From Tubulanus polymorphus (lineage: Eukaryota > Animalia > Nemertea), in NCBI RefSeq assembly GCF_964204645.1, contig NC_134026.1:12175950-12239949 (forward strand): a stretch of 64,000 bases of DNA, read 5' to 3'. The position numbers and the translations under genes were made by a program. A model generated the notes under the pieces. That model was not told the origin of the DNA, searched no databases, and was given only the letters and a program-made list of their open reading frames with translations. This document shows, piece by piece, positions 3,216-64,000 of this stretch (its first letter is position 1; each line of letters starts with the position of its first letter).

Positions 3216-3865
3216 AAGCTATGTTCTTTCCAAGGCCCTTCCGAAAAAATAATCAAAATATTAGTTGAAAAATCGTTTTTATTTCAAAATAAAACGTTGA
3301 ATGAAAAATTAAGTCGGGACTCTTTATTGTTTCAAACATTTAAGTAAATCATTAACATAGAACTCTCAAACGAAAATTAACTTATCATCGCTTGTCAGAC
3401 CTTGATTGGCGCACGCCAAATATCAAAGCAACACGAACCCTTGCTGCAAACCTTTCATTGGTCTTATTACACACCCCAAGATGTCTTGGGCGGACAGTTT
3501 AACGCTCAGTGCCCACCAGTCTATAAATCTAGCCAATAGTCCGTCGTATTTTACTGGCAGGTTTGCTCTATGAATAGCAGGCATCTGATTGGCTAGACTG
3601 GTGGGCGCTGAGTATTTATCTGTCGGCCTAAGAAATCTTGGACAATGTAATAGACCAATGAAGGGTCTGCGGCCGGGTGTATGTTGCTGTGATATTCGGC
3701 GGGCAGCAATCAAACGAAATGATTTGTCAGACTTGCTTATGAATGAGTAAAGTCTTTAGTTAACAACACCTTTCCATTAATTGATATCAGTAATTGGAAA
3801 AGTAGCCTTTCAGATCAGAGGTCGAGACACCACTCATCACCACAAATAATTTTTTTCCCTTATAA

Positions 3866-6680
3866 ATGGAGAATGAACAACAGCCAGAAAACAATAATGT
3901 CAATAAAAATCAATATTATTGCCAATATTGTAAAAAATACATCGATAAATCCCAAAAATCACGACATGAAAAATCTGCAAATCATATAAAAAATGGAATA
4001 GATTTTGAAACTCCAGAAAATTCCAATGAAAGAAAAGAACGATTAGATGATATGAATGTGGATGAAATAAAATGTGAAGTTTGTAATGAATTTATAGTAA
4101 AAAGGAATTATAATAGACATCTCGAATCACAAAAACACCATCAAAATTTGAGTAATAATGTTTTAGGAAAAGATTATTTCGATGATAAACCTCAAAAAGT
4201 AAAAAAAACCAACTTCAAAAACTAAATCCATTTCAAATAAACCTTACATGGAAAATGTTAGAAATTATATCGATACTCTTGAAATAAAAGATACAATTGA
4301 AATTTTAGAAACATTACATAGTAAAATTGGTCCTGCAGCTATTATATTTAGATTTTTTAAATGTACAACAATAGAAGATTATAGTAAATTTAATGAAATA
4401 ATAGAAAAAATACTAGATTTGATAACAGATGTTGAATATCCAAAAATTAGTATCTCTGGGAAAGTAAGTTTTATAAAGTCAGAAGAAAAAATGAATTATA
4501 ATATTCAAACACTCTCTGAAGAAATAATTTCAAAAACGCAAATAAAAGAGAAGTTAGAAAAAATATTTAATGAATTTAAACGTCATATTGAAGAAAGATA
4601 TTTTGAGGGTTCTGGCTTAACATTGAATGAAATTGTATATTTAGATTTAAATGTTTATAATACAAAAAGAAATAAAACATCAAAAAGTATTAAGATGTTT
4701 AAAAATGATTCAAACTTTACAACAGAAAAGGATATTAAAGCATCATCTTATATTAAATTACCATTTACAACAAAAGCAGTAATAAATATTCAAAATTAAG
4801 ATAATAAATGTTTTCTATGGTCAATTATTAGTTGCTTACATCCAACACAGGAAAATGTTTGTAGAATAACATATTACCGGAAATATGAAACATTATATAA
4901 AATTGATCAATATCCAGTAACTATAAAAATGATACCCAAAATAGAAAAAATTAATACTTCAAAAATAAATGTATTTGAATTAATGCAATTACCAAATACA
5001 AAAGGTGAAAATATTAAAGATTATACATTGGAAGCTTTATATTTAACAGAATATTATGATGATGAAAATGCTATAGATTTGTTATATTACAAAAAAGATG
5101 GAAATGAACATTATATGTGGTTAAAACAAATTGATTTATTCTTTAGAACAGAAAGTGATCACCATAATAAAATGTATCTATGTAGAAAATGTTTATCTAA
5201 ATTTATGACTGAGAATACATTATTAAAACATTAAGAATTATGTGATAATAAAGGTTTTTGTAAATTAATAATGCCAACAGAAAAAGATTATAAATTGAAA
5301 TTTACTAATCATAAATTTAAGAATATTGTTCCATTTGTAATTTATGGGGATTTTGAATCGTTGAATAAAGAATTAGCTGATCAAGATAGAAAATAAATAT
5401 ATAACAAAAAGCAATTATTAAAATCAATGGATAAAGGAAATGAATTAAATGAAGACACAATACAAGACCCACCAATTATAAATACAATTAAAAAAGTTCA
5501 TCAAAGAGCTGCTGCTTATGGAATTTACATAAAATCAAATTATCCTGAATTATATGAAAGTCAATATATTTCTTTTTGAGGTGAAGATGTAGTTAATAAT
5601 TTTTGTAACAAAATAATTGAATTAGAAAGTGATTTTGCAGAATTATTAAACAAAAATAAAAGAATAGTTATGACAAAAGAAGATGAAATTGATTTTAATT
5701 ATGCAACTCATTGTTGTTATTGTGAAAAACGTTTTTATTCATTTGATAAAAAAAGTTAGAGATCATGATCATTTAAATTCAAAATATCGTGGAGCTGCTC
5801 ATGAAGATTGTAATTTACAAGCTAAAAGAGTTAATTTCCTACCAATATTATTTCATAATTTATCAGGTTATGATACCCATCTATTTATAAAACAATTATC
5901 GGGAAAATTGGGCGCAATTAATCAAGAAATAGAAGAATATAATGCTGTGAATGGTGTAAATGTAAGAAAATATGATTTTAAAATATTAGCTAAAACCTCT
6001 GAAAATTATATTTCATTTCAATTTGGTTCCATTAGATTTTTAGATTCTTATAGATTTCTAGCAAGTTCATTAGATAATTTATCAAAAAGTTTAGTTGATA
6101 ATGATTTTATAATAACTCGATATTATTATCCAAATGAACAAGATTTTAAATTATTGAGATATAAAGGCGCAATACCTTACTCATTTTATAAAACGCATGA
6201 TGATTTCAAAGAAACAAAATTAATGAAAGAACAATTTTATGATCAATTAAAAAATGAGTACGTGAAAGATGAAGTGTTTAATAGAACATTAAATATTTGG
6301 AATTATTTCAAAAAAGAAAATCATAGGCAATTAGTAGATTCATATTTAAAATCAGATGTTATGATAATAGCCGATATATTTGAAAAATTTAGAGAAGTCA
6401 ATTTGAATCATTTTAATGTTGATCCCTGCTATTGCTACTCTAGTCCAGGTTTAACCTGGCAATGTGGTTTAAGATTTACAGATATAAAAATGGATTTGTT
6501 AACAAATATAGATATGGTTTTATTGTTTGAAAAATCTATTAGAGGTGGAATTAGTGGTGTTATGGGAGATAGATATTTTAAATCAAATGATGAATATAAA
6601 TTATTATATATTGACGCCAATAATTTATATGGTTGGGCAATGATGCAACCTCAACCATATAAAAATTTTATATTAACAGT
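3866..6680 (+). pseudogene. polB: Polinton protein-primed PolB, N-terminal two thirds, disrupted
   Basis: C2H2 fingers, IYGDFES (ExoI), EndoVII-like VRDHDH...YRGAAHEDCNL, FHNLSGYD (ExoII), FLDSYRF, IRGGIS and LYIDANNLYGWAM (motif A). Several stops and frameshifts; truncated at about 6680. Confidence 0.93.
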
Positions 6681-8094: not shown

Positions 8095-8142
8095 TTACGT
8101 ATAATCGAAGAGAAAACGGGGTTTGCGCCATGTATGCCACTT

Positions 8143-11134: not shown

Positions 11135-11385
11135 GTGTTCGAATGAGAAGATTATTTTGTTTGAATTAAGAATACTTATCATAACGAAGACCATCTTATT
11201 TCACCAAAATTTTGCTCTTTGGAACGAAAAACTCTTCGATCGAACAATATATCTGTTCGAACAAAAACGTAATGTTCTGCAGGAAATCTTGTTCAAATAA
11301 AAACAATTCTGTTTGATCGAACAATACGCCTTTTGTTCGAACGAAAACTTCTTCGTTCTGACAAAAAAATTTGTTTGAATAAAAA
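11135..11385. repeat. Degenerate short-period repeat with a TTGTTCGAAC core
   Basis: Recurrent gttcgaa/tttgaa cores at roughly 21-bp spacing. Confidence 0.5.
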
Positions 11386-11770
11386 GCATTAGAGAAAAAT
11401 ATTAAAGCAGTAGAAGAATATAGAGAAAAAAGACAAAATTATATGGTACATATTGATAAAGAATTACATTATCAAAATATTTCACACCGAGATTTTAAAT
11501 CAGTTGATGAAGCTATGAGTTTATATAATTCAGTAACAAATCGTGAACAATTACATCTATATAAACCAAATTATCAGATCATTACCCACCGAGTAAAAAA
11601 CAACAAAAATATGAAATAATTTGGATTTTAGGAGGAACAATTATTGTTATATTTGTTGCATATAAATTTACTAATTAGTAATTTTTTCACAACATAAATG
11701 GAAGATAAAATGGATGGCGTTAACAATATTCCTCATCATATAAATAAGACTAAATTGAAATCATATTAAG

Positions 11771-13466: not shown

Positions 13467-14399
13467 AAAAACGGATATTAGAATTTTAAAATAATTTAAG
13501 TAATAAGAAAAACTATTGAAAAAGTAAAAATTAAATATTATTTTATTATTAGTGTTTCTGTTACAATTAGTTCTGTAATAACATTTTTTGCAATGTTCAG
13601 CCCATTAACACCTTTAGCTATATCAATTGGTGTTTTAGGTTCAAGTGTTCTAACTGGAATAAGTTCAAAATTAAATATAAAAAGTCATTAGAAAAAATTA
13701 AATCTGATATAAAAGAAATAAATGAATTAAAAATACATTAGATTAAATAATTAGTTTAAATGGAAATATTACAATTGAAGAACAAGATAAATTATCAAAA
13801 GAATTCATTTATTATTAATTTTTTCATTATATAGATGGGAGATAATTTTCCAAGATCTTTTCAATATGATAAATCAATTAAATATAATATTCCGGCAATA
13901 GATTTTAATTAAAATGTTTCATATAAAGATTTAGTTTTTAATTAATTGATGAATTTAAATATTTATGATACTGAAACTAATAATTTTAATGTTAAAATGG
14001 AAAATATATTTCATGTATATTTAATTGATTTTAAAAAATTGAAAGATGAAAACCATTGGTTATTAAAGTTTAATATGATATATTGGCAGAATCAATTAAA
14101 TTTTGCAGTTTATTGTGCAACAACAGGATGTGGAATAAGTTGGATTGATAATTTAAATAATTCAAAAAAAAATTAATTCAAAGTTTATTTAGATTTCATA
14201 CTTATTTTCAAATTAGAATAATACTTAATGAATTAGAATGTCCATTACCGGGATCAAAATATATTGAAGAATTAGATGATAATATTAATTTATCAAAGTT
14301 TTATAAGATTTGTAACGATTCTAATATAAATATAAATAATTCCAATTTTAGAACAAAAATTGGAACAATTAGATCAATTCCTTGTCCTGAAAATATGTT

Positions 14400-23380: not shown

Positions 23381-23904
23381 TACCCTCTCAGAGTCCGAGT
23401 AAACATATAATCCTTGTTGAAAATATGGATTATTTGGCATTGCATTTACTTTATTTGTATTATCATAGTTGTATTCATATTTTACCTGTACGTCTAGCTT
23501 AAATCTTTAACATCTGACCAATAGCTGTAATTATCATCTCTGATAATTGAATCTACATCACTGTAGGCTGCATCAAAGTAATAAAGCAGTTCAAATGGAA
23601 GGAAGTCTGGCTCGTTTCCCTCTGTGTTTCTCCCCCTCGGGCCTATGGAATATTTGACAGTTATACCAACAACCAAATAAGGCTAAAAAGTTATACCTTG
23701 TTTCTCATAATCTTGGGTGTCACCTATGTAAGTAATAACTGTTGGTTCTGTTATCTTTAGTAGCATGATTTACTGGGTATATATGGTATTTACCGGCTGG
23801 GTCAACTTTTAAGGCTCGGCAGATTTGGTTTTATTGGTTGCGCCAGTCTTGAATCCACAGGTATAATTTATAAATAACTACCTATCTTGTTTTATACTGG
23901 ATCA

Positions 23905-24375
23905 CAAAATAGTATGACATGAATTAAGAATATCAAACCTTTATTATGCTGTATACATGGCAGATTATCTATATTGCATTGAATATATAAATGTATATGT
24001 ACATTCATAGATTTATGTAGACTATGTAGGTCAAAACAATACAAAAATATCGTGTTTTTAGTATATCAAAATTATAGTGAGATATGAATTAAGAAGATTA
24101 AACCCGTTATTTTGCAGTATTACATTGTGTATATATTGCATCCAATGTATATGTACATTCATAGATATATCTAGACTCTAAAAACAATACTGGTAGGCTT
24201 AGAAAAATAGTGTTTTTAACATACTACAGCACAAAATTATAGTCAGCTATGAATTAAGAAGATTAAACATGTTATTTTGCAGTATTACATTGTGTATATA
24301 TTGCATCCAATGTATATGTACATTCATAAATATATCTAGACTATTTAGGCTAACAACAATACTGGTAGGCTTACT
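23905..24375. repeat. About 165-bp tandem repeat, 3 copies
   Basis: ATGAATTAAGAA...TATATTGCAT...AATGTATATGTACATTCATA recurs at about 23919, 24084 and 24249. Confidence 0.85.
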
Positions 24376-25158: not shown

Positions 25159-25327
25159 AGTAATAGGGGTTTAGTTGTTCTAGATCAAAGGTCGACCGGT
25201 CGAGAAATTTTCCAAATGTGAAATAACAATAATTTCTACTTGAATTAGTCGCGCACACTCCTAATTCAAGTAGAAATTATTATTATTTAACATTTGGAAA
25301 ACCTAGAACAACTAAACCCCTATTACT
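25159..25327. repeat. Terminal fold-back palindrome of the Polinton
   Basis: 25-bp outer stem AGTAATAGGGGTTTAGTTGTTCTAG/CTAGAACAACTAAACCCCTATTACT, an inner stem of about 40 bp and a 12-nt loop. Confidence 0.92.
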
Positions 25328-25572
25328 CTTAAAATATTCATATGCATGAATAAAATATATATGAATAACATTTAAATTGACGGATTATTCGATATAAAAG
25401 TGTGAGCTCTTATAGAATAGATATATAGATATATTTTAAACATTATTTCAATATTCATATTTGTATGAGTTAGATTTTTAATCATTAAAAGTGTTAGTAA
25501 AGTGTGATTGAAATAATACATATATAAATCATTGAACTTCTAAAATCAATTTAGTAAAAATATGTATAATAA

Positions 25573-26608: not shown

Positions 26609-27076
26609 ATGGAATACAGAGATCAACCAGAAATTCCAAGTCAACCATGGGAAGAGGAACCAGAATCGATAGATAGTGAAACTCAGGAATCAATAGAAAT
26701 GGAGGATAAAACTCTCGTAATTGACGAACAAACTTCACAAAAATTACAAGAACATTTAGACTATCATCAAGAAATGGTGAAAATTCTGAGTGATGTAATA
26801 CATAATAAACAATTACCGCGCGAACTACAATTACCAAAATTACCATCAACGCGACTTAAATTGCTGTTGGGACTCAAAGAATCGAAAACTAAGAAAATGA
26901 GTGGAGATATCAGTGCCGGTTTTGAAAGAAAACTGAGAAGAGTAGGTAGATTAATAAAATATGAAAAATTCAAAATATTAGGATTAGCATTTAGTGAAGT
27001 AGTCAGATATTTACCAGAAATTGAAGAAATGATTGGAAACAATACAGTAATTAAAGAATTCTGGACAAAATTATAA
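26609..27076 (+). CDS. Hypothetical 155-aa protein (acidic N-terminus, basic helical C-terminus) within the Polinton
   Basis: Intact ORF, preceded by a possible GTAAGT...TTTTAG 5'-UTR intron at about 26515-26601. Confidence 0.55.
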   Translation: MEYRDQPEIPSQPWEEEPESIDSETQESIEMEDKTLVIDEQTSQKLQEHLDYHQEMVKILSDVIHNKQLPRELQLPKLPSTRLKLLLGLKESKTKKMSGDISAGFERKLRRVGRLIKYEKFKILGLAFSEVVRYLPEIEEMIGNNTVIKEFWTKL

Positions 27077-27182: not shown

Positions 27183-27532
27183 TGTTACGCTCATTCTGTA
27201 CTGTACTTGTTTTTCTATTCTAAATCGAACTGTATGAACCTGTTGAAATATTTGAATTCTCCCGCCATGAATTAGTACTGGAAATCACGTGATTTCCTGG
27301 GCTTGTCGAGAGCTTTGGGTTTTGTTCAGTTCGCTTTGCGTGCTCGTCGTGTGTACATTCCTCCAAATTTTCACGTTAGTATAACTATTTGTATTATGCT
27401 TTTGATATTAATTTTGGTAGTATCTTATCATGTAATAATCCTTTCTTGTAGAAACATGTATTTTCGGTAATAAATCGTTGTAACAGAGAGAATACAGTCA
27501 TACAGTCGTCGTCGTATTTTCTGGTCGTAACA
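27183..27532 (+). repeat. 5' LTR
   Basis: TGTTACGCTC...GGTCGTAACA, a direct repeat of 33742-34092 (about 5 substitutions and 1 indel by eye). Confidence 0.97.
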
Positions 27533-30500
27533 TCGTTTGTGAAAATGGAGGACTTAGAACAAATGAAGAAGTCTCGAGCCGGATATAAAGCTAATGTAAC
27601 AAAGATAAGTAATCGTCTTCGCAAATGTCTCAAAGAGAATAGGAAATTTGAAGAAATCTTGCCCGTTGTAGAAGAATTAAAAGCCGCCTTCTCGAGATTC
27701 TCCGATTCCCATGATTCCGTTCATGAACGCTTACTTTCGGATGATGATATCGAACAATCGTTTATATATTATGACGCAGAAGAAAGCAAATATAAAGACT
27801 TGTTAATCAAAGTCAAGGGTTTAGGCGCTACGAGCCCAAGTCCAAGTCCGTCTGTTCCTACTACAGCGGAATCGGAAATTGACCAAGTCGAAAGAAGCGA
27901 AACCGAAAATATGAAAATGATGATCGACAATTTAATCAAGATGAGCCTCCCACAACAGGAGGTACCTGTTTTTTCAGGCGATCCGTCTGAATATTGTTTT
28001 TTTCTGAAATCGTTCGAAAGCATTATCGAAAGGAAAACTACTAGCAGCAGTGATCGTTTATACTACTTAATGCAGTATACCAAGGGTGACGTCCGCGAGC
28101 TGGTCCGTAGCTGTTTGGTACAGCAGCCCGACGAGGGTTACACAGAAGCTAAGCGATTAATTAAGCAATACTACGGTAATAGTTATGCGATTGCGACCTT
28201 ACTCGTGGATAAAATAATAAACGGGCCGATCGTTAAATCGGATGATGCTCACGCCCTTCAAAACTTGGCGATTCAGCTCGTAAGCTGTAAGAATACATTG
28301 ACCGAAATCGGATATATCAGTAAAGTGGAAAACCACTCCCGTTTGATCTGCGAAAGAAATGGAGAACAAAGGCAGATTATATCACCACATTTGAGGGTCG
28401 TGAGATATCAATCGAAGATATTTCTAGTTTCGTACAAACGGAGGCTCGAGTAGCGAATCATCCTGTTTTCGGGAATATTTCTGATGGGGTTAAGAAACCT
28501 TCACCTCATAAGTTGTCAAGATTCCCAGGGGCTTCTCCCGCTTCCCGAAATTTCGCTACTAATTCTCGATATAATTCAAGTAATGCATGGGTCAACTCAG
28601 CCCGTAATCCGAGAATTTGTAATCCGCCAACGAATAATTCAGCCGGTAATACGGGTACTGGTGCGTTGGTACTTCCAGGGTGCCCTTTGTGTTCGATAAA
28701 TGATCATTCTCTGGTGAATTGTCCAATATTTGTTAATAATTCATACGGGCAACGGGTTGAGTTTCTAAAGCTCAAGCGATTATGCTTTTATGTTTCGGTC
28801 CTAACCATATAGCTCGACAATGCAAAAGCAGAGTATCGTGTAGTGTATGAAACGGAAAACATGACAATCTATTGCATAGATATAATTTTCCCGCCAATAT
28901 TAACAATGACACTGTCGCGCCTACTTGTATCAACCCTACTGGTGTTTCTTCGTCACCCGTAGCGGCAACCGGTAGTAACACTCACTCAAATAATGCGATA
29001 AATCAATTCAATTAAACAAAGTAGGCCTATCATCGGTCGTATTGGTTTACCAATTGTACCGGTTAAAGTTAAGGGTAACGATAACGTTATTTTAACCTAT
29101 GCTTTGTTAGATTCGGGTAGTAACTCTACATTTTGCAAACAATCATTGCTCATCGACTTGGGGTATTCGCCCGACAGTTTAACTCGGAAAAATCTATCCC
29201 TGACAACGTTGACGGAGAATAACTGTTTAACTCAATCGTATGTCACTAATTTGGAGTTATCCGACATTGAGGATAATTTTACGAATGAACTGACTAATGT
29301 GTTTTCACGAAATTCATTGCCTATGACAAAAGACGATATTCCACGACAAAGTGACATAGACAAATATTCATATTAAGGCGACGTGATATTGCCCTTTATT
29401 GACGCTGACGTCGGATTGGTTATAGGAAATGATAATCATCAGGAACCGTTAGAGATTATAGGTAGCCATGACGACGGCCCTTATGCTGTAAGGACAATGT
29501 TCGGGTGGGTAATCAATGGTCCCCTGGGGGATAACGGACGGAGACTTAACTCTAAAAACAAGGTTTTTACTATTAAGACTGATGTAAGTGATGACATTCT
29601 GACCAGACAATTCGAATCTTATTGCAACAAAGAATTCAACGACAGAAATTATGATGATGACGTTTGTATGTCGCAGGAAGATAGGCGTGCACTTCAGATA
29701 ATGGAATCATCGGTTGTTTTGACGAGTGATAGTCATTTTCAGTTGGACTTACCTTGGAAGACTCAGCCGCCTAACTTACCTAACAATAAAGTCGTCGCTA
29801 TTCATCGACTGAGGAACCTTCGTAAACGTTCGTTAGGCGAGGCAAACTTATTTGAAGAATACGCAGGGTTCATCGATAAGATGATCAAGGCCCAGTTTTG
29901 TGAGATGGTACCAGAACACGATCTAGACCGCAGAGATGGCATGGTATGGTACTTACCCCACCATAGTGTGTATCATCCAACCAAAAAGAAAATAAGGGTT
30001 GTATTCAATTGCTCATCGAAATACATGAGAGTCTCACTCAATGACCGACTTTACCAGGGCCCGGACTTGACAAATTCCTTGATTGGTGTTTTAATACGCT
30101 TTAGGCAACAGCGAGTTGCTTTCATAGCAGACGTAGAAGGGATGTTTCACCAAGTGAGGGTAACTCCTAGTATGCGTGATGCGTTGAGGTTTCTTTGGTG
30201 GACAGATCGCAACCTGAACGAAGCAGCTACCGAGTATCGAATGCGTGTTCACCTTTTCGGTACCACTTCGTCACCCACATGCAGCAATTTTGCTTTAAGA
30301 AAGACCGCGATCGACAATAGGTCTCTGTTCGCCTCAGATGTCGCCGATACTGTACTCCGTAATTTCTACGTAGATGATTGTTTAAGATCCGTTCTCAGCG
30401 TCGACGAGGGAAAGCGACTAGTTAGTCAACTAATTCAGATGCTCACCAGAGGTGGTTTTAGACTGACTCAATTCTCGTCCAATTCCAGGGAAGTTTTGGA

Positions 30501-31580
30501 TACAGTTCCAGAGAGCGAGAGAGCTAAGACTGTGAAGTACCTGAACCTCGACAGCGAACAGTTACCGATGGAGAGAGCTTTAGGAATTTTATTGGACATG
30601 GAGTCTGACCAATTTCATTTCAGGGTAAAAAATGACTTGACGTCTAAGCCAAGTACTCGACGCGGTATATTATCCGCCATCAGCACACTATATGATCCGA
30701 TCGGATTTACAGCGCCTGTTTCACTCTCAGTGAAATCTGCGCTTCAAGAATTGAGTAGACTCAAACTGAGTTGGGATGATCCTATTCCCTACTGGTGCGA
30801 AAGACTGTGGAGTGAATGGCTTAAGGAGTTGCCGAAGTTGGAAGATTTGACAATAAGTAGATGTTTTAAACCAGCAGATCTCGACTGTGTCCCGTATACC
30901 GCACGACTCCACCACTTCGCCGACGCATCAGAGATCGGGTACGGGGCAGTGAGTTATATTCGCTTCGATTTTAATGGAAATGCTCATTGTTCTTTTGTTC
31001 TAGGGAAGTCTAGAGTCACTCCAATCAAGACCTTGAGTATCCCAAGACTCGAATTAGCGGCCGCAGTACTGGCGACACTGTTAGACAAGATGATACTGAA
31101 AGAATTGGATCCCCCTACTGAAAGATCGTGGTTCTGGACTGACAGCACTGCAGTGTTGAAGTACATTCATAATGAGAGCAGGCGTTTTCAGGTCTACGTA
31201 GCTAACAGAGTCTCCAAAATACGCGAACATTCGAGCCCTGACCAGTGGCATTTCGTCGAAGGTGTTTCTAACCCCGCCGATGATGCGTCACGAGGTCTGA
31301 AGCCGTCCCAGCTTACGCCTTCATCGAGATGGTTATCGGGGCCGGAATTCCTGTGTATGGACGAGAGTTCCTCGCCGGCATTTCCAGATGACGTTAACAT
31401 GGCAATAGACCCGTCAGATCAGGAATTAAAGAAGTCAGTGCTTTCTCACACCATCATCAAGAATGAAGAAGATTACTTGTTGAAATTCGTAGAACGATTT
31501 TCGTCTTGGCATATGCTGAAAAAATGTGTATCATGGATTAGGAACAGTTTAACACTCATACACTGGATAAACTTTGATAC

Positions 31581-31634
31581 TCACAAGAGCAAGCTTTCAC
31601 CTACATTCTGTAGGCATCGTCAGGCTTAATGTGA
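31581..31634 (-). ncRNA. Minimal type I hammerhead ribozyme (Penelope type)
   Basis: CUGACGA, stem II GCCUACA/UGUAGGU, GAAA, palindromic AGCU stem III, stem I UCACA..AGC/GCU..UGUGA. Confidence 0.75.
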
Positions 31635-32171
31635 CGTCATCAGATGTTGTTGATGTGACGTCACAGCCGGATCTCGTCAGCTGGTCTGTGAAGGCCCCCG
31701 CGCGCCATCTGCTGCCTTAAGGATGTTATTCCATACAGGGGGTAGAGCAAATCTCCCAAAGTCTTTATTCAGCGTGGGGTGTCTCAGGTATATGTAAAAT
31801 GACTCCTGAACACCTCGTACGAACCACCGGGGTTCCACCGTCAAAATGTCTGTGTTGCCTATATCAACAGAGTGATCAGGATTGTCAGTATGGATGTGTT
31901 GGGATACCTCTGACGTCACAGAGCTAGGTCGACGGTGTTCACCAAACCGGGCTCTCAAGGAGCGCTCAGTTTCACCAACATAACTCGCATCGCAAGATTC
32001 ACATTTAACATGGTACACCGGTCTAACTAATAACTGGCGTAACGTGTTCACCGGTTTAAAATACACACTAATGTTGTAGTCTTTCATCACCCGTCTGATT
32101 TGTTCAGACATGCCCTTCACATATGGTACTACGACCGATCTCTTACGTCACATCAACAACATCTGATGACG

Positions 32172-32225
32172 TCACATTAAGCCTGACGATGCCTACAGAA
32201 TGTAGGTGAAAGCTTGCTCTTGTGA
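32172..32225 (+). ncRNA. Minimal type I hammerhead ribozyme, inverted copy
   Basis: TCACATTAAGC CTGACGA T GCCTACA GAA TGTAGGT GAAAGCTT GCTCTTGTGA. Confidence 0.75.
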
Positions 32226-33741
32226 GTATCAAAGTTTATCCAGTGTATGAGTGTTAAACTGTTCCTAATTTGGATATTCCTGGATAGTAAAGAATGTTTA
32301 ATGGTATCATGGATCTTGAGATTCAAATCTATATTCTTACAGAAAATTCGCAAAGAGACGCCTGATACATTTCCTGGTAGAATAACGGTTACTGAACTGA
32401 GACGAGCAGAGCGTGAAATATTGAGTTACGTGCAGCGACGTCACTACCCAGACGAATGTTCTGGTATCAGTGACAAAACTTCTCGACTACTGCCTCTAGA
32501 CCCAGTTCGTATAGAGGGACTTCTAAGAGTTGGGGGAAGATTGAGACGGTCGAGTTTACCCTTTGAGATAAAGCACCCCATCATTGTTCCAAAGTCCTCT
32601 CATATATCTCATCTCATCATTGAATACTATCATCGCATGTTTGCTCATAAAGGTGTAGAGTTTATTTTATCTCAGATAAGACGTAAATTCTGGATAATTA
32701 ACGCTAAATCGATTATTAAGCGTATCTAACGCACATGCATCCCCTGTAGAAAACGAAAAGCTAAAGTAATGGAACAAAAAATGTCTGATTTACCTGGGGA
32801 TAGAGTAACTCCCGATTTGCCCCCTTTTTCAAACGTGGGAATAGATTATTTCGGTCCATTTCTAGTAAAACGGGGCCGGGCTCGCGAAAAACGGTACGGC
32901 TGTTTGTTCACATGTATGGCCAGCCGTGCTGTCCATATTGAAATGTGTCATTCTATGGATACGGATTCCTTCATATGTGCATTAAGGCGTTTCATTAGCC
33001 GTCGAGAATAAGAAGTGATAATGGCACTAATTTCGTCGGCGGACGACGCGAGTTGCGCCATGCGATCGAAAGCTGGAACCAGGAAAAAATTCACGAATTC
33101 TGCCTGCCGACCGCATCGCATATGGGTGGAACTTGGGAAAGAATCATCCGTACGATTCGAGATACTGTCACGGCCATCGCAGGCGAGCAAATCCTGGACG
33201 ATGAACGTTTCTCTACGTTAATGTGCGAGGTCGAAGCAGTAATAAATAATCGTCCTTTGACCGCAAATTCCGACGATCCTTCAGATTTGAACGCGCTATC
33301 ACCGAACCACTTGCTTCTCGCGAGATACGGTCCTCGGCTACCGCCCGGTAAATTCACTGAACGCGACAATTATTTAAGGAGATGGTGGCGTCAGGTACAA
33401 TATCTTGCGGATGTATTTTGGCGAAGATGGCTGTCCGAATATGTAGCCGTTTTGCAAAAGCGCTCGAAATGGTTTCGTCTCCGTAAAAACGTCCAAATCG
33501 GTGAACTTGTGTTAATTGTCGATGATAAAATCCCTCGATGCTCGTGGCTACTGGGGCGTGTAGTTTCTACATATCCCGATCAGGACGGGGTTGTCCGATC
33601 TGTCAAGCTGAGAACGCAAAACTCAGAGCTGATGCGACCCATTCAGAAGTGCATTCAATTAGAATGCTCTGTAGATGATTAATCTAATTGTAAATTGCTT
33701 CTTGTGATTAAATGCTAAAGCCTATTTAATGGGGCCGGAGA

Positions 33742-34092
33742 TGTTACGCTCATTCTGTACTGTACTTGTTTTTCTATTCTAAATCGAACTGTATGAACCT
33801 GGTGAAATATTTGAATTCTCCCGCCATGAATCAGTACTGGAAATCACGTGATTTCCTGGGCTTTGTCGAGAGCTTTGGATTTTGTTTAGTTCGCTTTGCG
33901 TGCTCGTCGTGTGTACATTCCTCCAAATTTTCACGTTAGTATAACTATTTGTATTATGCTTTTGATATTAATTTTGGTAGTATCTTAACATGTAATAATC
34001 CTTTCTTGTAGAAACATGTATTTTCGGTAATAAATCGTTGTAACAGAGAGAATACAGTCATACAGTCGTCGTCGTATTTTCTGGTCGTAACA
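33742..34092 (+). repeat. 3' LTR
   Basis: Direct repeat of 27183-27532, followed by the TSD ACCGG. Confidence 0.97.
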
Positions 34093-34511
34093 ACCGGTCC
34101 GATTGGACCGCTTTTCTATTGTTCTCCATTGTTCTATTATCGATCGTTGTTGACGGAAACAGCTGCTCAATATTGATTGGTTACATTTCTGTATTTCTAT
34201 GTTTGAATGTTGTAGTTTACAGAATAAAAATATAACTGTGTATTGCGCAATAACCGGTCCGATTGGACCGCTTTTCTATTGTTCTCCATTGTTCTATTAT
34301 CGATCGCTAAAATTTACATAATAAATATGTGTTTATGAAATAATATTTCCACCAGTCGTTTCGTTGAATTGATTTTCAGTTGAGGATTTATTATCGAGGA
34401 TCCGAAATGACTTATCAAAAGCAGCGAGGAATGAAAAAGGATGACGTTAGTCGAATAAATGGAGGAGGATTCTAAAATGTTAATCAATTTTAATAAAAAT
34501 TTGATTTATAA

Positions 34512-34727
34512 ATGGAAAGGAATAATGAATACAATAAAAAACTTATTTGGGGTTGGAAAGATTTAAGACCTCTTGAAAAGAAAGAAAATAAAATCAAATC
34601 TAATAAACTAGATTTACAGTTATATTTAGAACAGTTAACAAAGGCAAAGAAATTTATTGACCAATGGAACAATGATCCAAATAATGAACAATACGTTGAG
34701 GAATTTGATATCAAGGATCCGAAATGA
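34512..34727 (+). pseudogene. Duplicated C-terminal module of the HNH gene
   Basis: WGWKDLRPLEKKENKIKSNKLDLQLY matches the HNH tail; the 3' part matches 50694-50945. Confidence 0.75.
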
Positions 34728-35031
34728 TTTATCTGGACAGTTATAATTACTGCTCCTAATAGATAAACAAAAGTAGTGAGATATCAAATAGAATTCAAAT
34801 AAAATACATTAAAAAAACAACTTCAACTAGCCATTATTTCTATTTTAATTTTTAATATTTTCTTTTACAATTCTTTTCAAAAGAGAATACTTTATATCGC
34901 AAATAAAAAATACTAAAAAAACAATAACTAATACTAAAATTCTTTACCTTTAACTAACTAGTATTAACCCAAAGAGATGCTGGTATCATTTTATAATACT
35001 TATATTTTTTTCGCGTTTTTCTCTAATATAA

Positions 35032-35639
35032 ATGTCAAAGAAATCGAGTAAGAATAGTCTTGATATTGAAAAGACATTAGATGATTTGGGTATAAGTGAT
35101 AATAAGGATACAGTTGTAACTAATTGTGCTCAAGTTAATTGTAATATTGATTATGAATACTATTTATATTGTAAACACCATCTTGAATTACTAATTGCTG
35201 GTGGGAAATCTAAAGAGTTTTTAACTAAGACTATTACTTTTCAAGAATAAGATGCTATGAAACCAGATTAAGTAATAAAATATTTTAAGATTTATGAAGA
35301 AGCTAGATTAGCTAGAATAAATGATTTAAATCTATTTCAGATGGTATTGTCAAATGTTACTCTAAGTTATGTAACCAGTTAATACCAATTGATGATGAAA
35401 ATAAATTATATAATGATTTGAAAAATGACTACTTAGTTATGACTGAATTACAAAAATGGGTTGGTTATGCTTCATTTCAATTAGGATCGGTTATGACATT
35501 AATTTCTACTGGTGTCATAACATTTTCGAATATCAAGCCTATGGAATATAAATCAGGTAAGAACGAAACAGATGTACTACAACCAAATGGTGAAACAGAA
35601 AATGAATCAGAACAAAAATTAACTAAAATAAATGAGTGA
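35032..35639 (+). pseudogene. Polinton hypothetical protein, homologue of 51912-52514
   Basis: Near-identical translation, with internal stops and a frameshift. Confidence 0.9.
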
Positions 35640-35979
35640 TGGCGTTAAGAAAATGCCTAGATCCGAGAAACAAATTAAATGGGCAAGAGAATTAGGTAAA
35701 AGATCTGCAGAATTATCTGATATTGATTCAAATAATAATCCATCTGATTCTTCTAATAGTGGAAGAAATAATTACTTATATATTACAATTGGGTTAATCA
35801 CAATTATTATATTATCTGGTGTAATATATAAATCAAAATTCAAATCTGATGATAAAGATGATTCCAATGATGATCGGAAACTTAGTTATCCGTGTACAGA
35901 CAATAAACCTATCATACCAGAAAATAAGTCAAATCATAAAACCATTGAAACTAAATCTAAATTATTATTAATGGATTAA
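35632..35979 (+). CDS. Polinton single-TM protein, homologue of 52507-52893
   Basis: Near-identical, with an in-frame deletion. Confidence 0.8.
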   Translation: MSDGVKKMPRSEKQIKWARELGKRSAELSDIDSNNNPSDSSNSGRNNYLYITIGLITIIILSGVIYKSKFKSDDKDDSNDDRKLSYPCTDNKPIIPENKSNHKTIETKSKLLLMD

Positions 35980-35985
35980 AATAAG

Positions 35986-37057
35986 ATGAAAAAAGAACAA
36001 TATTTAAGAGATTAATATTATAACCCAGAAAGTGAAGTATCATATTCTAACGTTTCAGAATTATGGAATAAAATTAAATCTGATAATGAAAATATAAAAT
36101 ATAGTGAATTGAAATCATGGTTACAAAATCAACCAACATATCAAATCCATAAGAAAATGGATAAAACTTATTTAACAAGAAAAGTTATGGTTTCATATAT
36201 CGATCAACAATAGCAAGCAGATTTAATTGACATGAAGAACTTAGAAGAATACAACAAAGGATATTTCTGGATATTAAATGTTATAGACATATTCAGTAGA
36301 TACGCATGGTCAATTCCAATCAAAAATAAAACTGGTATAGAAGTGACAAATGCTTTTAAATCAATATTTAAAGAAGTTATTCCAGATAAGATACAATTTG
36401 ATGAAGGTAAGGAATTCTATAACAAACATTTTACTATTATCTGATAACGATGTAGAATATTTTTCAACACACTCAGATAAAAAAGCATCTATTATAGAAA
36501 GGTTTAATAAAACATTGAAAACTAGAATGTGGAAATATTTTACTGCTAATGAAACATATATTTATATCGATGTAATAGATGATTTAGTGAAAGGTTATAA
36601 TAATTCTAAACATAGTTCTATACATATGAAACCTATGCAAGCTAGAAAAGAAGATAATTCGGAAATAGTTTGGAATAATTTATATGGAGCATTTGTTACA
36701 CATGATTTTGGTGAACCTAAATTTAAAATAGGACAACACGTTAGAATATCTAAATATAGAAAAACCTTTTATAAAGGTTATACCCCTAATTTTACAGAAG
36801 AAATATTTAAGATTAAAAAGATAATATTAACTAAACCTTTTGTTTATGAATTAGAAGATTTAAAAAATGAAGAAATATTAGGTTATTTCTATGAACAAGA
36901 ATTATCACTTGTACCAAACCCAGATGAAATAGAATAGAAAGTATTGAAAACAAAAACTCTTAAAGGAAAAAAGTATTCTTTGGTGAAACATAAAGGATAC
37001 GATGAAAAATTTAATGAATGGATTTTATCTAGTAAAATTAAAAGAATAAATGAATAA
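35986..37057 (+). pseudogene. Retroviral-like integrase plus chromodomain, disrupted
   Basis: Copy of 52900-53985 with stops and frameshifts. Confidence 0.93.
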
Positions 37058-37661
37058 AGATTTATTTATATTTGAACCGCATAATATGTTAGTTACTGGA
37101 GTAACCAATTGTGGTAAAACACATTTCATATTAGATTTGTTAGAAACTATTTATAAGAATCATTTTGATAATATAATATTATTTTGCCCTACTTATCAAA
37201 TGAATAAAACATATAAAAGAGACATAGTTAAGATAAAAAAGTTTATTATATTAAATCCTAAAACAGTAAAAGAAAATTTAGATAATTGTATAAAAATAGC
37301 AATTGATACTTATAAAGGATCAAATACATTATTCATTATAGATGATTGCGCAAATTTACATGATTCAAAAGTGAGAGAAAGTGAGTTATGTTATTTAGCT
37401 TTCTCTGGGAGACATTTCGGGATAACAACATGGGTTTTAAATCAAAAATATCATTCAATTGTTAAAGACTTTAGGGAGAATATAAGATTTCTAGTTTTAT
37501 TTTATAACAAAGATAAAAAATCTATGCAACAATCATTAGAAGAAAATCAAATTATACCTACTGAATTACATGATGAATATATGAATAAATTAAAGAATAA
37601 TAAAGGTTCAAAATTATTACTGAGACTACAATTTCCATATGAATATAAATTTATAAAATAA
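37050..37661 (+). CDS. A32/FtsK-like packaging ATPase
   Basis: Walker A GVTNCGKT, Walker B LFIIDD, SGRH, and LNQ..IVKDFREN. Confidence 0.92.
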   Translation: MNKDLFIFEPHNMLVTGVTNCGKTHFILDLLETIYKNHFDNIILFCPTYQMNKTYKRDIVKIKKFIILNPKTVKENLDNCIKIAIDTYKGSNTLFIIDDCANLHDSKVRESELCYLAFSGRHFGITTWVLNQKYHSIVKDFRENIRFLVLFYNKDKKSMQQSLEENQIIPTELHDEYMNKLKNNKGSKLLLRLQFPYEYKFIK

Positions 37662-37675
37662 CTATTTATATACCT

Positions 37676-38060
37676 ATGTATTAGATACCCTATTAGATAC
37701 CCTAATACCTGATGCCCTATTAGATACCCTAATACCTGATGCCCTATTAGATACCCTAATACCTGATACCCTATTAGATACCTTAAATACTTAAAACCCC
37801 CTTTTTTAAAATAAATATTATTTATACAATTTTCAACCAATTTATTTTTATTTTTTCAACTAATATATGAATAAGTTTGAAAATAATAAAGGTTATTTAT
37901 TATTACTGAGGTTTCAATTTCCATATGAATATCAGTTTATAAAATAAGATATTTTATGTATTAGATTGTATTAGATATGTATTAGATACCTTAAATACCT
38001 TAAATACTTAAAACCCCCTTTTTTAAAATAAATATTATTTTTACAATTTTCAACCTTTAT
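37676..38060. repeat. 27-bp minisatellite and local duplication 3' of the ATPase
   Basis: (CCCTATTAGATACCCTAATACCTGATG) x3; the block ACCTTAAATACTTAAAACCCCCTTTTTTAAAATAAATATTATTT is repeated at about 37780 and 37997. Confidence 0.85.
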
Positions 38061-40097: not shown

Positions 40098-40130
40098 TTA
40101 TTATATAAATTTTTATTAAAGTTAAAATTC

Positions 40131-43990: not shown

Positions 43991-43994
43991 TATT

Positions 43995-50205: not shown

Positions 50206-50611
50206 AGTAATAGGGGTAATGGGCTTTCAGGCCAAAGGTCGAACGGTCGAGCCCATTAAAAAACAAAATATTAAAAGTAATTAAAAAACTATAATATATT
50301 TTCATAACCGCGTGCATTTTATATCAAAACTAAATATTTATTCTAAGATATCAATAATATAAAAAGCATATTGTATTAAATCAATTGGTCGCTCCACTTC
50401 GCTACCGCTCCGCTCCGCGACCAATTGATTTAATTACAATACACACATTCAAATAATCAAATATATTCAAATGATAATAATTATTCTATTATTCAACTGA
50501 AATGCACGCGGTTATGAAAATATATTATAGTTTTTTAATTACTTTTAATATATGTTATTAATGAACTCGATCATTAAACCTTTAGCCTGAAAGCCCATTA
50601 CCCCTATTACT
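50206..50611. repeat. Terminal fold-back palindrome, 406 bp
   Basis: Perfect stems of 27, 52 and 17 bp separated by unpaired bubbles, with a 24-nt pyrimidine-rich apical loop. Confidence 0.95.
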
Positions 50612-50693
50612 CTTAAAATATTCATATATATATGAATAACATTTAAATTATTGAACTTCTAAAATCAATTTTAATAAAAAATATAGTATTAAA

Positions 50694-50945
50694 ATGGAAG
50701 CAAATAAGTACTACTGCCCAACATGTAATATCGATATAGATAAATCCCAAAAAGCAAGACACAATAAAACTAGAACACATTTAGAGAATAAATTGAAACT
50801 AGAATATTTACAGTTATATTCAGAACAGTTAACAAAGGGAAAGAAATTTATTGAATTATGGAATAATGATCCAAATAATGAACAATACGTTGAGGAATTT
50901 ATTATCAAGGAATCGAAAGAACTTATCAAAAGCAGCGAGGAATGA
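50694..50945 (+). CDS. Small C2H2 Zn-finger protein fused to an HNH-tail module
   Basis: YYCPTC...RHNKTRTH, similar to the first PolB finger at 3866, followed by LQLYSEQLTKGKKFIELWN as in 51024-51686. Confidence 0.7.
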   Translation: MEANKYYCPTCNIDIDKSQKARHNKTRTHLENKLKLEYLQLYSEQLTKGKKFIELWNNDPNNEQYVEEFIIKESKELIKSSEE

Positions 50946-52899: not shown

Positions 52900-53985
52900 A
52901 TGAAAAAAGAACAATATTTAAGAGATTTATATTATAACCCAGAAAGTGAAGTATCATATTCTAACGTTTCAGAATTATGGAATAAAATTAAATCTGATAA
53001 TAGCAATATAAAATATAGTGAATTAAAATCATGGTTACAAAATCAACCAACATATCAAATCCACAAGAAAATGGATAAAACTTATTTAACAAGAAAAGTT
53101 ATGGTTTCATATATCGATCAACAATGGCAAGCTGATTTAATTGATATGAAGAACTTAGAAGAATATAACAAAGGATATTTTTGGATACTAAATGTTATAG
53201 ATATATTCAGTAGATACGCATGGAGTATCCCGATTAAAAATAAAACTGGTATAGAAGTTACAAATTCTTTCAAATTAATATTTAAAGAAGCTATCCCAGA
53301 TAAAATACAATTTGATGAAGGTAAAGAATTTTATAACAAACATTTTAAAAAACTATTAACTGATAACGATGTAGAATATTTTTCAACACATTCAGATAAA
53401 AAAGCATCTGTTATAGAAAGATTTAATAAAACATTGAAAACTAGAATGTGGAAATATTTCACCGCTAATGAAACATATAAATATATCGATGTGTTAGATG
53501 ATTTAGTTAAAGGTTATAATAATTCTAAACATAGTTCTATAAATATGAAACCTATACAAGCTAGAAAAGAAGAAAATTCAGAAATAGTTTGGAATAATTT
53601 ATATGGAGCATTTGTTACACATGATTTTGGAGAACCTAAATTTAAAATAGGACAACATGTTAGAATTTCTAAATATCGAAAAACATTTTATAAAGGTTAT
53701 ACCCCTAATTTTACTGAAGAAATATTTAAAATTAAAAAGATAATATTAACTAAACCATTTGTTTATAAACTAGAAGATCTAAAAGATGAAGAAATATTAG
53801 GTTATTTCTATGAACAAGAATTATCACTTGTACCAAATCCAGATGAAATAGAATACAAAATAGAAAAAGTATTGAAAACTAAAACTCTTAAAGGAAAAAA
53901 GTATTCTTTGGTGAAATATAAAGGATATGATGATAAATTTAATGAATGGATTTTATCTAGTAAAATTAAAAGAATAAATGAATAA
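52900..53985 (+). CDS. Retroviral-like (c-)integrase with C-terminal chromodomain
   Basis: WQADLIDM, IDIFSRYAW, QFDEGKEF, IERFNKTLK, YNNSKHSSI, and chromodomain YKIEKVL...LVKYKGY....NEWI. Confidence 0.97.
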   Translation: MKKEQYLRDLYYNPESEVSYSNVSELWNKIKSDNSNIKYSELKSWLQNQPTYQIHKKMDKTYLTRKVMVSYIDQQWQADLIDMKNLEEYNKGYFWILNVIDIFSRYAWSIPIKNKTGIEVTNSFKLIFKEAIPDKIQFDEGKEFYNKHFKKLLTDNDVEYFSTHSDKKASVIERFNKTLKTRMWKYFTANETYKYIDVLDDLVKGYNNSKHSSINMKPIQARKEENSEIVWNNLYGAFVTHDFGEPKFKIGQHVRISKYRKTFYKGYTPNFTEEIFKIKKIILTKPFVYKLEDLKDEEILGYFYEQELSLVPNPDEIEYKIEKVLKTKTLKGKKYSLVKYKGYDDKFNEWILSSKIKRINE

Positions 53986-54593
53986 AGATTTGTTTATATT
54001 TGAACCACATAATATGTTAATAACTGGAGTTACAAATTGTGGTAAAACACACTTCATATTAGATTTATTAGAAACTATTTATCAGAATCATTTCGATAAT
54101 ATAATATTATTCTGCCCAACTTATGAAATGAATGAAACGTATAATAGAGATATAGTTTTTAAAGATAAAAAGTTTATTATATTAAATTCAAAAACAGTGA
54201 AAGATAATTTAGATAATTGTATAAAAATTGCAATAGATATTTATAAAGGATCTAATACATTATTTATTATTGATGATTGCGCAAATTTACATGATTCAAA
54301 AGTTAGAGAAAGTGAGTTATGTTATTTAGCTTTCTCTGGGAGACATTTTTGGGATAACAACATGGGTTTTAAATCAGAAATATAATTCAATTGTGAAAGA
54401 TTTTAGAGAGAATATAAGATTTCTAGTTTTATTCTACAACAAAGATAGAAAATCTATGCAACAATCATTAGAAGAAAATCAAATTATACCTACTGAATTA
54501 CATGATGAATATATGAATAAATTAAAGAATAATAAAGGTTCCAAATTACTTATGAGATTACAATTTCCATATGAATATAAATTTATAAAATAA
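53978..54593 (+). pseudogene. Packaging ATPase with a one-base frameshift
   Basis: GVTNCGKT and IIDD. CATTTTTGGG at about 54345 versus in-frame CATTTCGGG in the 37050 copy. Confidence 0.9.
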
Positions 54594-54651
54594 CTATTTG
54601 TATACCTATGTATTAGATACGTATTAGATATGTATTATATACCTCCCCTAA

Positions 54652-56429: not shown

Positions 56430-57677
56430 TTAATACATAACACTATCTAATTGTGAATTTACAATATTTAATTGCGCGTCAGATATAATATAAATGTGCA
56501 TTTTAAAATTTTTGATTCCCTTTTTCTTTGTCATGAATAATTGTATTCCATCTTTAGTGTTCTGTAGTTTTTTTCCAGAACCATGTAATGAATTATCCTC
56601 TGTTGTTCTAAAATCTAACCATAATGCATATTTATTACCGGTATAATAATCAATTTGATTAATGTTACAATTTTCAAATGATTTTATTTTTTCATTCATA
56701 AAATGTTTTTTAATTTCTACCCATTGATCAATCATTCTCATTCCTTGACAGAATATTTTATTCGCTATACCTTCGATAGTTATTTCTACTTTTGTTATTT
56801 CAGGATTATAATAATTATCAACATTTATTGCGCCATTAGTATACGTTCCAATAGTAAAAAATATTAATATACCTTTAATAGATCTTCTAGGGAAGTTAAT
56901 ATTCTCATTAATTATTTCATCATTTGCATTAATAGTTACAGTTTTAAATTTATCAATATAATCATATAATAATGAAAATCCTTGATTGTATTGAGTTTGA
57001 ATTATACTTGAAATATTTTCATCAGTTACTGTATCATATTCTAAACATATATTCGATAATTTATAACTCATATCTTTATTAACGCTAGATAATACAATTT
57101 CATTTACAGGAGCAAATGTTATCTCAAATATAATATCTTCTTGAATTGCGTATTTATATAAAGGTGCATTATTATTTATCAATTCAAAGTCTAATGGAAT
57201 TTTATATTTGCTTCCATATATACTTTTTATCAATTTATCTACATCATTTGTTAATATTGCGCTATTAGCTTCTGATCTTAATTTATTTTGGTTTTCCGAT
57301 TGGATGCCTTGAAATATCATATTATTTCTATTTTCTTTAGTTAACCATAAATCTTTATAATGCATAAATAAATTATAATCATCTAATGAGAAAACTGTTT
57401 CCGGACCAATCTTTATTGTTAACTTTTTAATCAAATATCTTCCAACATTATCAACAACATAATTATTATTATTACCGGCTACTGTTATATCGGCTGATAA
57501 ATAAATACTATTTGGAACGTAAAAAGTATTTTGTGTTAATCTAGGAATTCTAACATATAAAGTTTCATCGGGATTAATATTTGAAGGGTTATGAGTAATT
57601 ATATGATGTGATCTTTCTGCTTTAATAGCGTTAGATATTCTAGAAATCTTCGAAGGACTTATATAACTCCCACTCAT
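56430..57677 (-). CDS. Probable major capsid protein (double jelly roll)
   Basis: 415 aa, beta-rich; NPSNINPDETLYVRIP, NVGRYLIKKLTIKIG and YALWLDFRT...LHGSG resemble recalled invertebrate Polinton MCPs; size and context fit. Confidence 0.8.
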   Translation of the reverse strand: MSGSYISPSKISRISNAIKAERSHHIITHNPSNINPDETLYVRIPRLTQNTFYVPNSIYLSADITVAGNNNNYVVDNVGRYLIKKLTIKIGPETVFSLDDYNLFMHYKDLWLTKENRNNMIFQGIQSENQNKLRSEANSAILTNDVDKLIKSIYGSKYKIPLDFELINNNAPLYKYAIQEDIIFEITFAPVNEIVLSSVNKDMSYKLSNICLEYDTVTDENISSIIQTQYNQGFSLLYDYIDKFKTVTINANDEIINENINFPRRSIKGILIFFTIGTYTNGAINVDNYYNPEITKVEITIEGIANKIFCQGMRMIDQWVEIKKHFMNEKIKSFENCNINQIDYYTGNKYALWLDFRTTEDNSLHGSGKKLQNTKDGIQLFMTKKKGIKNFKMHIYIISDAQLNIVNSQLDSVMY

Positions 57678-63137: not shown

Positions 63138-64000
63138 TTAACACGCTAGAATCCTTTTCATAATCTCATTTTCTTTTGTTTCTTCTCTTTTGAATTTTAT
63201 ATATTCATCTAAATTGCAACCATAGGCGACTGTGTGGATTCCATCATCTAAAATATATCTTTTATCATCAAATGGGTTTAGACTTATCTTCTCTATCTCT
63301 TCAATATACATTTCATGATCTTCAGATCTTAAACATTTCATCTTATGTTTTCTAACTTCTTCATTAAATATACAATTGATGTAATCTTTAAAATGAATAT
63401 TCTTTTCAACAACGCTTTTGGTTATTCCTTTTAACTTTTTAGCTTCATGTTCTTTAGTTTTATATGAATACATTTTAGATCTAATACCAATGAACTCTAT
63501 CATTTCTTCACCGCCTAATTCATCCTTAAACTTCCCTGGAACTTTTTTATTATCATTGCTAAACAATTCATGATCTTTAGGATAGTTACTAAAATCAAAA
63601 TGATGTTTTAATGTTTTTAAATCATCTGTTATGTTATCAGTTTTTATCTTTAATATGAAACTGTCGGTATCAAAGTATAGAATTTCTATGTGTTTTTCTC
63701 CAAAATGAGGTTGTAGTATATTATAATAAAATTTATACATTAGGAATTTTGAAATTTCTAGAACTGCAGCACCAACATAAATAGGTTTATTGAACTTCAT
63801 TGAAGTTCTTTTCATTTTAACTGCTGCTAAATTTTCATCAAATATTCTGTTACCTATAAACTTAGGATATGATTGTAAATGCCTAATTCTTTTACCATTA
63901 CTGACTAACTCGATATCATTTCTATTTCTAATATTTTCACAAGTCTTACCATAGAATGCATTATTCATTAACTTAAAAAAATCTTTATCAAAATCAGTTT
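63138..64000 (-). CDS. polB: Protein-primed family B DNA polymerase, C-terminal part, intein-free allele
   Basis: KLMNNAFYGKT (motif B), YFDTDS (motif C), GKFKDE, RSKMY, KGI and DDKRY. Confidence 0.97.
   Translation of the reverse strand, partial: TDFDKDFFKLMNNAFYGKTCENIRNRNDIELVSNGKRIRHLQSYPKFIGNRIFDENLAAVKMKRTSMKFNKPIYVGAAVLEISKFLMYKFYYNILQPHFGEKHIEILYFDTDSFILKIKTDNITDDLKTLKHHFDFSNYPKDHELFSNDNKKVPGKFKDELGGEEMIEFIGIRSKMYSYKTKEHEAKKLKGITKSVVEKNIHFKDYINCIFNEEVRKHKMKCLRSEDHEMYIEEIEKISLNPFDDKRYILDDGIHTVAYGCNLDEYIKFKREETKENEIMKRILAC

Follow-up and report, generated by a model that had tools for sequence, protein, structure and literature searches.

Organization of the locus

The window, by which we mean the whole 64-kb stretch of Tubulanus polymorphus DNA that was analysed, contains several clustered Mavericks, and its main features are collected in Table 1. 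Its repeats, BEL/Pao among them, and the type of element point to an invertebrate host. By its gene content, the element that begins at the palindrome designated T2 is a Maverick/Polinton, with an HNH-type nuclease gene, an integrase combining rve and chromodomain, an A32-type ATPase, a probable capsid gene and a family-B polymerase. Polymerase, integrase and ATPase are all encoded by this element. The polymerase piece at the window end gives no Pfam polymerase match when taken alone. Its stretch from 63141 to 63998 shares 83-87% identity with the C-terminal end of proteins of the P0126/P0127 type, which are 1319-1365 aa long and whose middle in turn shares 70% identity with the PF03175 ORF at 5683. 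The capsid candidate has 927 homologs, and nearly all of the 120 listed are unnamed. No adenovirus-like protease was matched among the T2 ORFs scanned, several of which have no match at all, in an element that leaves the window; a matching right end of T2 was likewise not found within the 64 kb. The ends begin with AGTAAT at the boundary defined by the reads and carry the AG...CT end motif of Mavericks.

Nine of the 11 ORFs of the element start in TAAATG and the other two in TAAAATG, contexts that we take to resemble poxvirus late promoters.

Table 1. Features of the window discussed in the text, with positions counted from its first letter.
Feature	Position	Strand	Remarks
T0, end-like site	3789..3826	+	End motif and half box at the same spacing, no fold-back
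Broken polymerase gene, 5' two-thirds	3866..6680	+	45-70% identical to P0126 residues 6-941; PF03175, E 6e-14
T1, terminal fold-back palindrome, 169 bp	25159..25327	+	Truncated Maverick copy, end on the HNH side
T1 outer arm, 12-bp conserved end plus 13-bp variable part	25159..25183	+	Perfect complement of 25303-25327
T1 conserved box, two GGTCGA hexamers 8 bp apart	25186..25204	+	Unpaired bulge in the T1 fold
T1 inner stem	25208..25301	+	Arms 25208-25248 and 25261-25301; 12-nt loop 25249-25260
T1 conserved junction, following the inverted inner copy of the end	25328..25343	+	No depth drop across 25327/25328
Zinc-finger and HNH-type nuclease ORF, open, 222 aa	25573..26241	+	PHROG 1035, endonuclease VII; H-I-D-H...N motif
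T2, branched terminal fold-back palindrome, 406 bp	50206..50611	+	HNH-side end; its Maverick continues beyond the window end
T2 box on the outer arm	50233..50251	+	Pairs with a mismatched counterpart, 50566-50584
Inner part of the inferred ~602-bp terminal inverted repeat	50612..50807	+	Closes with the polymerase gene's first ~38 codons (50694-50807)
Second zinc-finger and HNH-type nuclease ORF, open, 220 aa	51024..51686	+	Copy behind T2
rve integrase with chromodomain	52900..53985	+	PF00665, E 8e-9; PF00385, E 8e-5
A32-type packaging ATPase	53978..54385	+	PF04665, E 5e-9; frame stops early relative to the 203-aa copy at 37050-37661
Probable double-jelly-roll major capsid protein	56430..57677	-	PF16903, E 0.0075 (curated cut-off not reached)
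Family-B (protein-primed type) DNA polymerase, C-terminal part	63138..64000	-	Rest outside the window

Fold-back structure of the T1 and T2 ends

The positions and lengths of both palindromes, their common 12-bp end, the box and the junction all agree with the original prediction. T1 and T2 start with the same 12 bp and are each closed by the reverse complement of these 12 bp; this inner copy stops exactly at the terminal base, and the same junction sequence follows it in both. Folding with DNA parameters predicts for T1 a perfect outer stem of 25 bp, the box as a bulge, and an inner stem of 41 bp that has two mismatches and is capped by a 12-nt loop (-57.8 kcal/mol). For T2 the prediction is a perfect outer stem of 27 bp, the box opposite its mismatched partner, a long stem in the middle and branches at the top (-119.3 kcal/mol). 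The corresponding z-scores are -15.5 and -23.5, based on 60 dinucleotide shuffles each, and in both predicted folds the 3' terminus is base-paired within the fold-back.

The box is matched twice in the window, once in T1 and once in T2, and never in 100 shuffles. Its intact form occurs on the outer arm only, in a single orientation, and we regard these 19 bp as a candidate protein-binding site. The inner stems, which had been described as unrelated, do differ over most of their length, but not wholly, since both apices share the pattern ATT(A/G)G-TCGC...CACT...C(T/C)AATT. Neither palindrome unit is surrounded by a target-site duplication.

Ends, copy number and orientation in reads

Read evidence was drawn from raw DNA reads of run X6, which bears the same species label as the best-matching data set and belongs to a different study, with 12% of the run used; runs X1-X3 consist of contigs that may include the source of the window and were left out as independent evidence. 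No RNA data set was listed as containing the sequence. These reads establish T1 and T2 as true ends of a many-copy Maverick/Polinton. At T1, 411 reads have mixed flanks before 25159, and the depth steps from ~4 to 620-800. At T2, 1705 and 558 reads (2263 together) have loose ends before 50206 and 50205, with an agreement of 0.34-0.36, and the empty site is represented by 969 reads of the flanking repeat that run on past 50205 with an agreement of 0.92. This flanking sequence (49900-50205) is another high-copy repeat, seen in its uninterrupted form in those 969 reads. If the T1 flank is single-copy, the depths correspond very roughly to 750 ends and 200 HNH genes, a ratio of ~3.7 to 1.

T1 had been interpreted as the second terminus of the T2 element, an assignment ruled out by its orientation, which is the same as that of T2. 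It is instead where another, truncated copy ends on the HNH side; that copy shares the HNH gene with the T2 copy and then diverges at ~26240.

Behind the inner copy of the end the depth does not fall (1120 to 1144 at T1, 1672 to 1694 at T2). Loose ends at this place lie outside the six largest classes per run (under 517 reads at T2, under 316 at T1), and the reads on T1 and T2 contain no large class with host flank there. By these counts, neither equal flip and flop forms nor stand-alone hairpin units make up a major class, and minor classes of either, or an asymmetric resolution, may be compatible with the reads.

At T2, an 83-codon ORF that starts with the N-terminus of the polymerase lies between the hairpin and the HNH gene, which qualifies the earlier description of the HNH genes as adjacent to the termini. 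The start of this ORF is 70-76% identical to residues 1-41 of the full-length polymerases P0126/P0127. Where the polymerase match ends, at 50807, 708 reads leave T2 with a mutual agreement of 0.95, and the depth is ~1690 at the junction versus ~830 on the HNH gene. From the depth ratio, the concordant reads and the polymerase start together, we infer a terminal repeat of ~602 bp, one at each end. T2-type elements thus likely carry the hairpin and the polymerase start at both ends within a repeat of ~600 bp, a conclusion drawn from the reads and the polymerase match, the right end of T2 itself being beyond the window.

Concerted change of the palindrome arms

As originally predicted, the stems of T1 and T2 differ and yet stay complementary: their outer arms differ at 8 of 25 positions, and all eight differences are compensated. 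A similar picture emerges within the read population. Among the variants listed for T1 (40 of 42), 16 fall in the inner stem, and 12 of them keep or restore pairing; eight make up four compensated pairs with similar shares (36/42, 22/16, 32/24 and 34/27%), four repair the two mismatches of T1, and the remaining four have no listed partner. In addition, 634 reads diverge from T1 before 25221 and 655 behind 25288, and these two sites are exact pairing partners, so another lower stem takes the place of that of T1 on both arms at once.

Among the 40 of 317 variants listed for T2, 14 are in the hairpin: two constitute a compensated pair, four repair mismatches, three are at ambiguous places, and five have no visible partner and would break pairs unless the partner is among the unlisted variants. 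Hairpin length also changes. At T2, 517 reads leave just after the box, and 11 reads join 50252 to 50594 with 31 letters between them, a hairpin form of ~96 bp, which gives a range of ~96 to 406 bp. The variants are pooled and not phased, with 279 of the 3485 reads fitting two places. They stem from a few subfamilies in which they are common by descent and do not represent independent events; the chance figure of ~1e-4 for matched stem variants is not a significance test because the variants share descent.

The original prediction left the choice between selection on structure and homogenisation of the arms, and proposed covariation testing with R-scape to examine it. The concerted change of the arms is borne out, both between the window copies and in the read population. 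According to PMC8604942, template switching alone homogenises the arms of inverted repeats: the intramolecular route uses one arm as template for the other, and inversion of the spacer arises by the intermolecular route. Compensated arms together with a fixed orientation would fit intramolecular fold-back copying. Since such homogenisation proceeds without selection, neither covariation nor R-scape can settle the choice, and covariation in DNA palindromes should not be taken as evidence of selection, a caution that applies to similar cases. A better argument for function comes from what escapes homogenisation, namely the box, kept on the outer arm only and in one orientation. The exact stop of the inner copy at the terminal base, the retention of apex and junction, and the absence of the box from the inner arm are features that suggest such a function.

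The HNH nuclease gene

The best PHROG match of the HNH proteins is endonuclease VII (PHROG 1035, E 4e-17 to 1e-17). The genes beside T1 and T2 are less alike than the near-identity first reported, at 87% DNA and 83-84% protein identity. In the relative L023 the gene lies between another gene and the integrase, in the relatives L022 and L025 it has no match, and in the copy at 34379 it is largely deleted, with the same joint present in 21 reads. This distribution resembles that of a mobile accessory gene, and a fixed hairpin-resolving role for the HNH gene is not supported.

The AlphaFold model of the protein has a pLDDT of 46, and PDB sequence searches with it returned nothing meaningful. Its Atlas matches are unnamed viral clusters, and the HNH/NUMOD clusters, which score below 0.9, serve as leads only. 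The protein may be a resolvase or a homing-type nuclease. In P0003, an HNH homolog is fused behind a deoxynucleoside-kinase domain (PF01712). A 155-aa ORF (26609-27076) behind the T1 HNH gene has the start context of the element and no match in T2, Pfam or PHROGs.

T0 and other palindromes

A further end-like site, T0, lies 77 bp upstream of the broken polymerase gene. It agrees with the first 38 bases of T1 or T2 at 29 of 38 positions, with a maximum of 28 in 60 shuffles, and its fold z-scores of -0.2 and +0.8 indicate that there is no fold-back. Judged by this resemblance, T0 probably marks where an element of a sister subfamily ends on the polymerase side, with no fold-back; that subfamily may manage without one, or the T0 copy may have lost it. 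Arm substitutions without compensation had been named as the observation that would speak against the original prediction, and they are found in part, as the four partnerless variants among the 16 of T1 and as the T0 site (3789) with no fold-back. The stretch 3789-3865 also contains CACTC, and a 36-bp imperfect palindrome centred on 3783-3788 spans the outer boundary.

Unrelated palindromes occur between genes at 54651-55216 of the window and in L022, L023 and L025, which suggests that fold-backs may arise readily in this family. Those just behind the ATPase gene are A-T-rich and unlike one another in sequence; they are present at 54651-55216 and 51880-51941 of the window and in the three relatives (L022 9082-9359, L023 3743-3825, L025 3183-3255). 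Giant viruses follow a hairpin rule, in which a hairpin serves as a 3'-end signal, and by analogy the ATPase-side palindromes could possibly have the same role.

Proposed replication at the fold-back ends

What the sequence and the reads display directly is that T1 is an end, that it can fold, that its arms co-vary and that the box is on the outer arm. Our main reading, to which we give a rough probability of 0.5, is that the arms are homogenised by fold-back copying, that the displaced strand recovers a duplex origin through the hairpin and that the box marks the end. Copying of one arm from the other by the polymerase of the element would likely account for the observed change of the arms in step. 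In protein-primed replication by strand displacement, the displaced strand would need a duplex end, and an inner inverted copy 170-400 nt away would provide it locally, instead of through a panhandle of 15-20 kb. Through the fold, the 3' end of the displaced strand would regain a replication origin in double-stranded form. If that 3' end were trimmed and re-extended on the inner arm, the outer 25-27 bp would stay perfect and the loop would not be inverted. The box, intact only in the full duplex at the real end, might mark this end for the integrase or for the polymerase and terminal protein, in which case the inner copy would not be used.

We know of no direct test of Maverick replication. 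In the accounts given in PMC4046053 and PMC4196379, it has been modelled from sequence in racket or panhandle form, and for protein-primed elements the prevailing model has a panhandle as origin.

A tentative alternative holds that the palindromes are a neutral by-product: the polymerase would snap back at the ends, thereby creating and homogenising the inverted copy, and only the terminal ~45 bp, comprising the end motif and the box, would matter. That T0 has no fold-back, that hairpin length is so variable and that unrelated palindromes exist inside the element and its relatives would all be expected, as would arm homogenisation by template switching, which in PMC8604942 needs no selection. 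Harder to reconcile with a by-product is that the box has not been copied to the inner arm, though both neighbouring stems have, that the apex motif and the junction are kept across otherwise unrelated stems, and that the fold-back persists in several stem types and at hundreds of ends.

We consider it unlikely that the ends work by parvovirus-like self-priming, in which the folded 3' end would prime synthesis and a nuclease similar to endonuclease VII, either the HNH product or a domain within the polymerase, would resolve the hairpin. Symmetric hairpin transfer should yield equal flip and flop forms; the loose ends behind the inner copy are fewer than 517, compared with 2263 at the outer end of T2, and there is no depth step. 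The perfectly paired 3' terminal base, with a template that continues into the element, would suit self-priming, and so would the endonuclease VII match of the HNH ORF and a weak PF02945 match in close full-length polymerases (E 2e-4 to 1e-2, below the cut-off). The HNH gene, however, is located elsewhere in L023, unmatched in L022 and L025 and largely deleted at 34379, the end begins with AGT as in protein-primed Mavericks, and no Rep was matched (Pfam, PHROG) among the ORFs scanned, of which some remain unannotated. Hairpin priming has been proposed for virophages as well as Polinton-like viruses (PLVs) of protists in a preprint (bioRxiv 10.64898/2026.07.28.741278).

More doubtful still is a combination of hairpin telomeres like those of AAV with a polymerase of the protein-primed type, in which the displaced strand would self-prime and a domain similar to endonuclease VII would resolve the hairpin asymmetrically, returning the box to the outer arm. 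If true, it would represent a hybrid of protein-primed and hairpin-primed replication and would tie the ends of Polintons to those of parvoviruses and giant viruses, which are hairpins. Finally, two inverted Maverick-type ends bound each palindrome and ends outnumber HNH copies in depth, as expected of a small independent mobile unit (a MITE-like mini-Maverick) landed beside the HNH gene, but the absence of target-site duplications around either unit, the same junction behind both and the undiminished depth behind the inner copy make this highly improbable and largely refute it as the main class.

Comparison with known systems

The T2 element is like animal Mavericks/Polintons (adintoviruses), as these are presented in PMC8097293, PMC10748475 and PMC8502044, in its family-B polymerase, rve integrase, A32 ATPase, probable capsid gene and AGT end, and its inferred terminal repeat falls within the range of 46-1447 bp given there for vertebrate Mavericks. 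It differs from them in that the outer 170-400 bp of the repeat are themselves palindromic and contain the end a second time, inverted and further in, and in that the end reads AGTAAT rather than (AGT)2. Neither hairpins nor palindromes are mentioned in the main text of PMC8097293 and PMC10748475, nor hairpins in that of PMC8502044.

As reported in the preprint cited above, endogenous virophages of Halocafeteria seosinensis and PLVs of subtype 4 have palindromes in their terminal repeats next to the target-site duplication, and hairpin priming is proposed as a model for them (bioRxiv 10.64898/2026.07.28.741278). These elements have a protist host, palindromes of 52 nt in the figured subtype and mostly no protein-primed polymerase. 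By comparison, T1 and T2 belong to an animal-type element with a polymerase of the protein-primed type, their hairpins are longer and bulged or branched, and turnover and orientation are documented at the level of reads. Casposons, in the treatment of PMC4046053, are similarly self-synthesising, have internal palindromes in some terminal repeats and have been proposed to use a panhandle origin; unlike the T2 element, they are prokaryotic and use a Cas1 integrase, and their palindromes are not presented there as a fold-back of the whole end. The ends of the Polinton-derived bidnaviruses are stated in PMC4061559 not to form such hairpins.

The T2 element has its own polymerase, no Rep was matched among its ORFs scanned, and its ends do not show equal flip and flop. 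In these respects T1 and T2 differ from the termini of parvoviruses and AAV, which they resemble in being palindromes whose 3' end is paired and whose interior is asymmetric.

The titles and opening abstract lines searched contain no description of ends like T1 and T2 in polymerase-bearing animal Mavericks, though supplements, Repbase or subscription journals may have one. What appears to be new here is the combination of hairpin-ended terminal repeats in a polymerase-bearing Maverick, concerted turnover of the arms and a protected, asymmetric box. With its hundreds of ends, its several types of stem and a short motif spared by the homogenisation of the arms, this family allows structure to be separated from sequence at the origin. 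It also provides a candidate binding site of 19 bp, and the panhandle, local-hairpin and self-priming models can be told apart with it.

Searches beyond the window yielded no relative with such an end. The end pattern had no match in metagenome contigs; in viral contigs it had 3 and 18, none of which (0 of 21) had both end copies or similarity to the window, and these were attributed to chance. The integrase search of viral contigs found no relative, and neither the end motif nor the hairpin was matched in seven metagenome loci with related capsid genes (51-77%), of which the longest stop before the terminus.

Other repeats in the window

A second internal copy of the T2 family, with 88-94% DNA identity, occupies 34379-40874 and is the one in which the HNH gene is largely deleted. 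Older, inverted Maverick fragments, 75-84% identical to T2, are found at 11385-14352, 43052-44282 and 48950-49741. A 312-bp imperfect palindrome at 3402-3713 was rejected as a Maverick end, as it has no end motif. Like it, the tandem arrays at 8132-8850, 11834-12887 and 23883-24373, with units of ~74 and 154 bp, are probably other repeats.

Positions 27183-34092 hold a BEL/Pao LTR retrotransposon whose LTRs are 98% identical and which is flanked by the 5-bp duplication ACCGG. Inside it, a 733-bp insert (31537-32269) has perfect 125-bp inverted ends around an ORF with no Pfam match, which, judging from its motif, we presume to be GIY-YIG-like.
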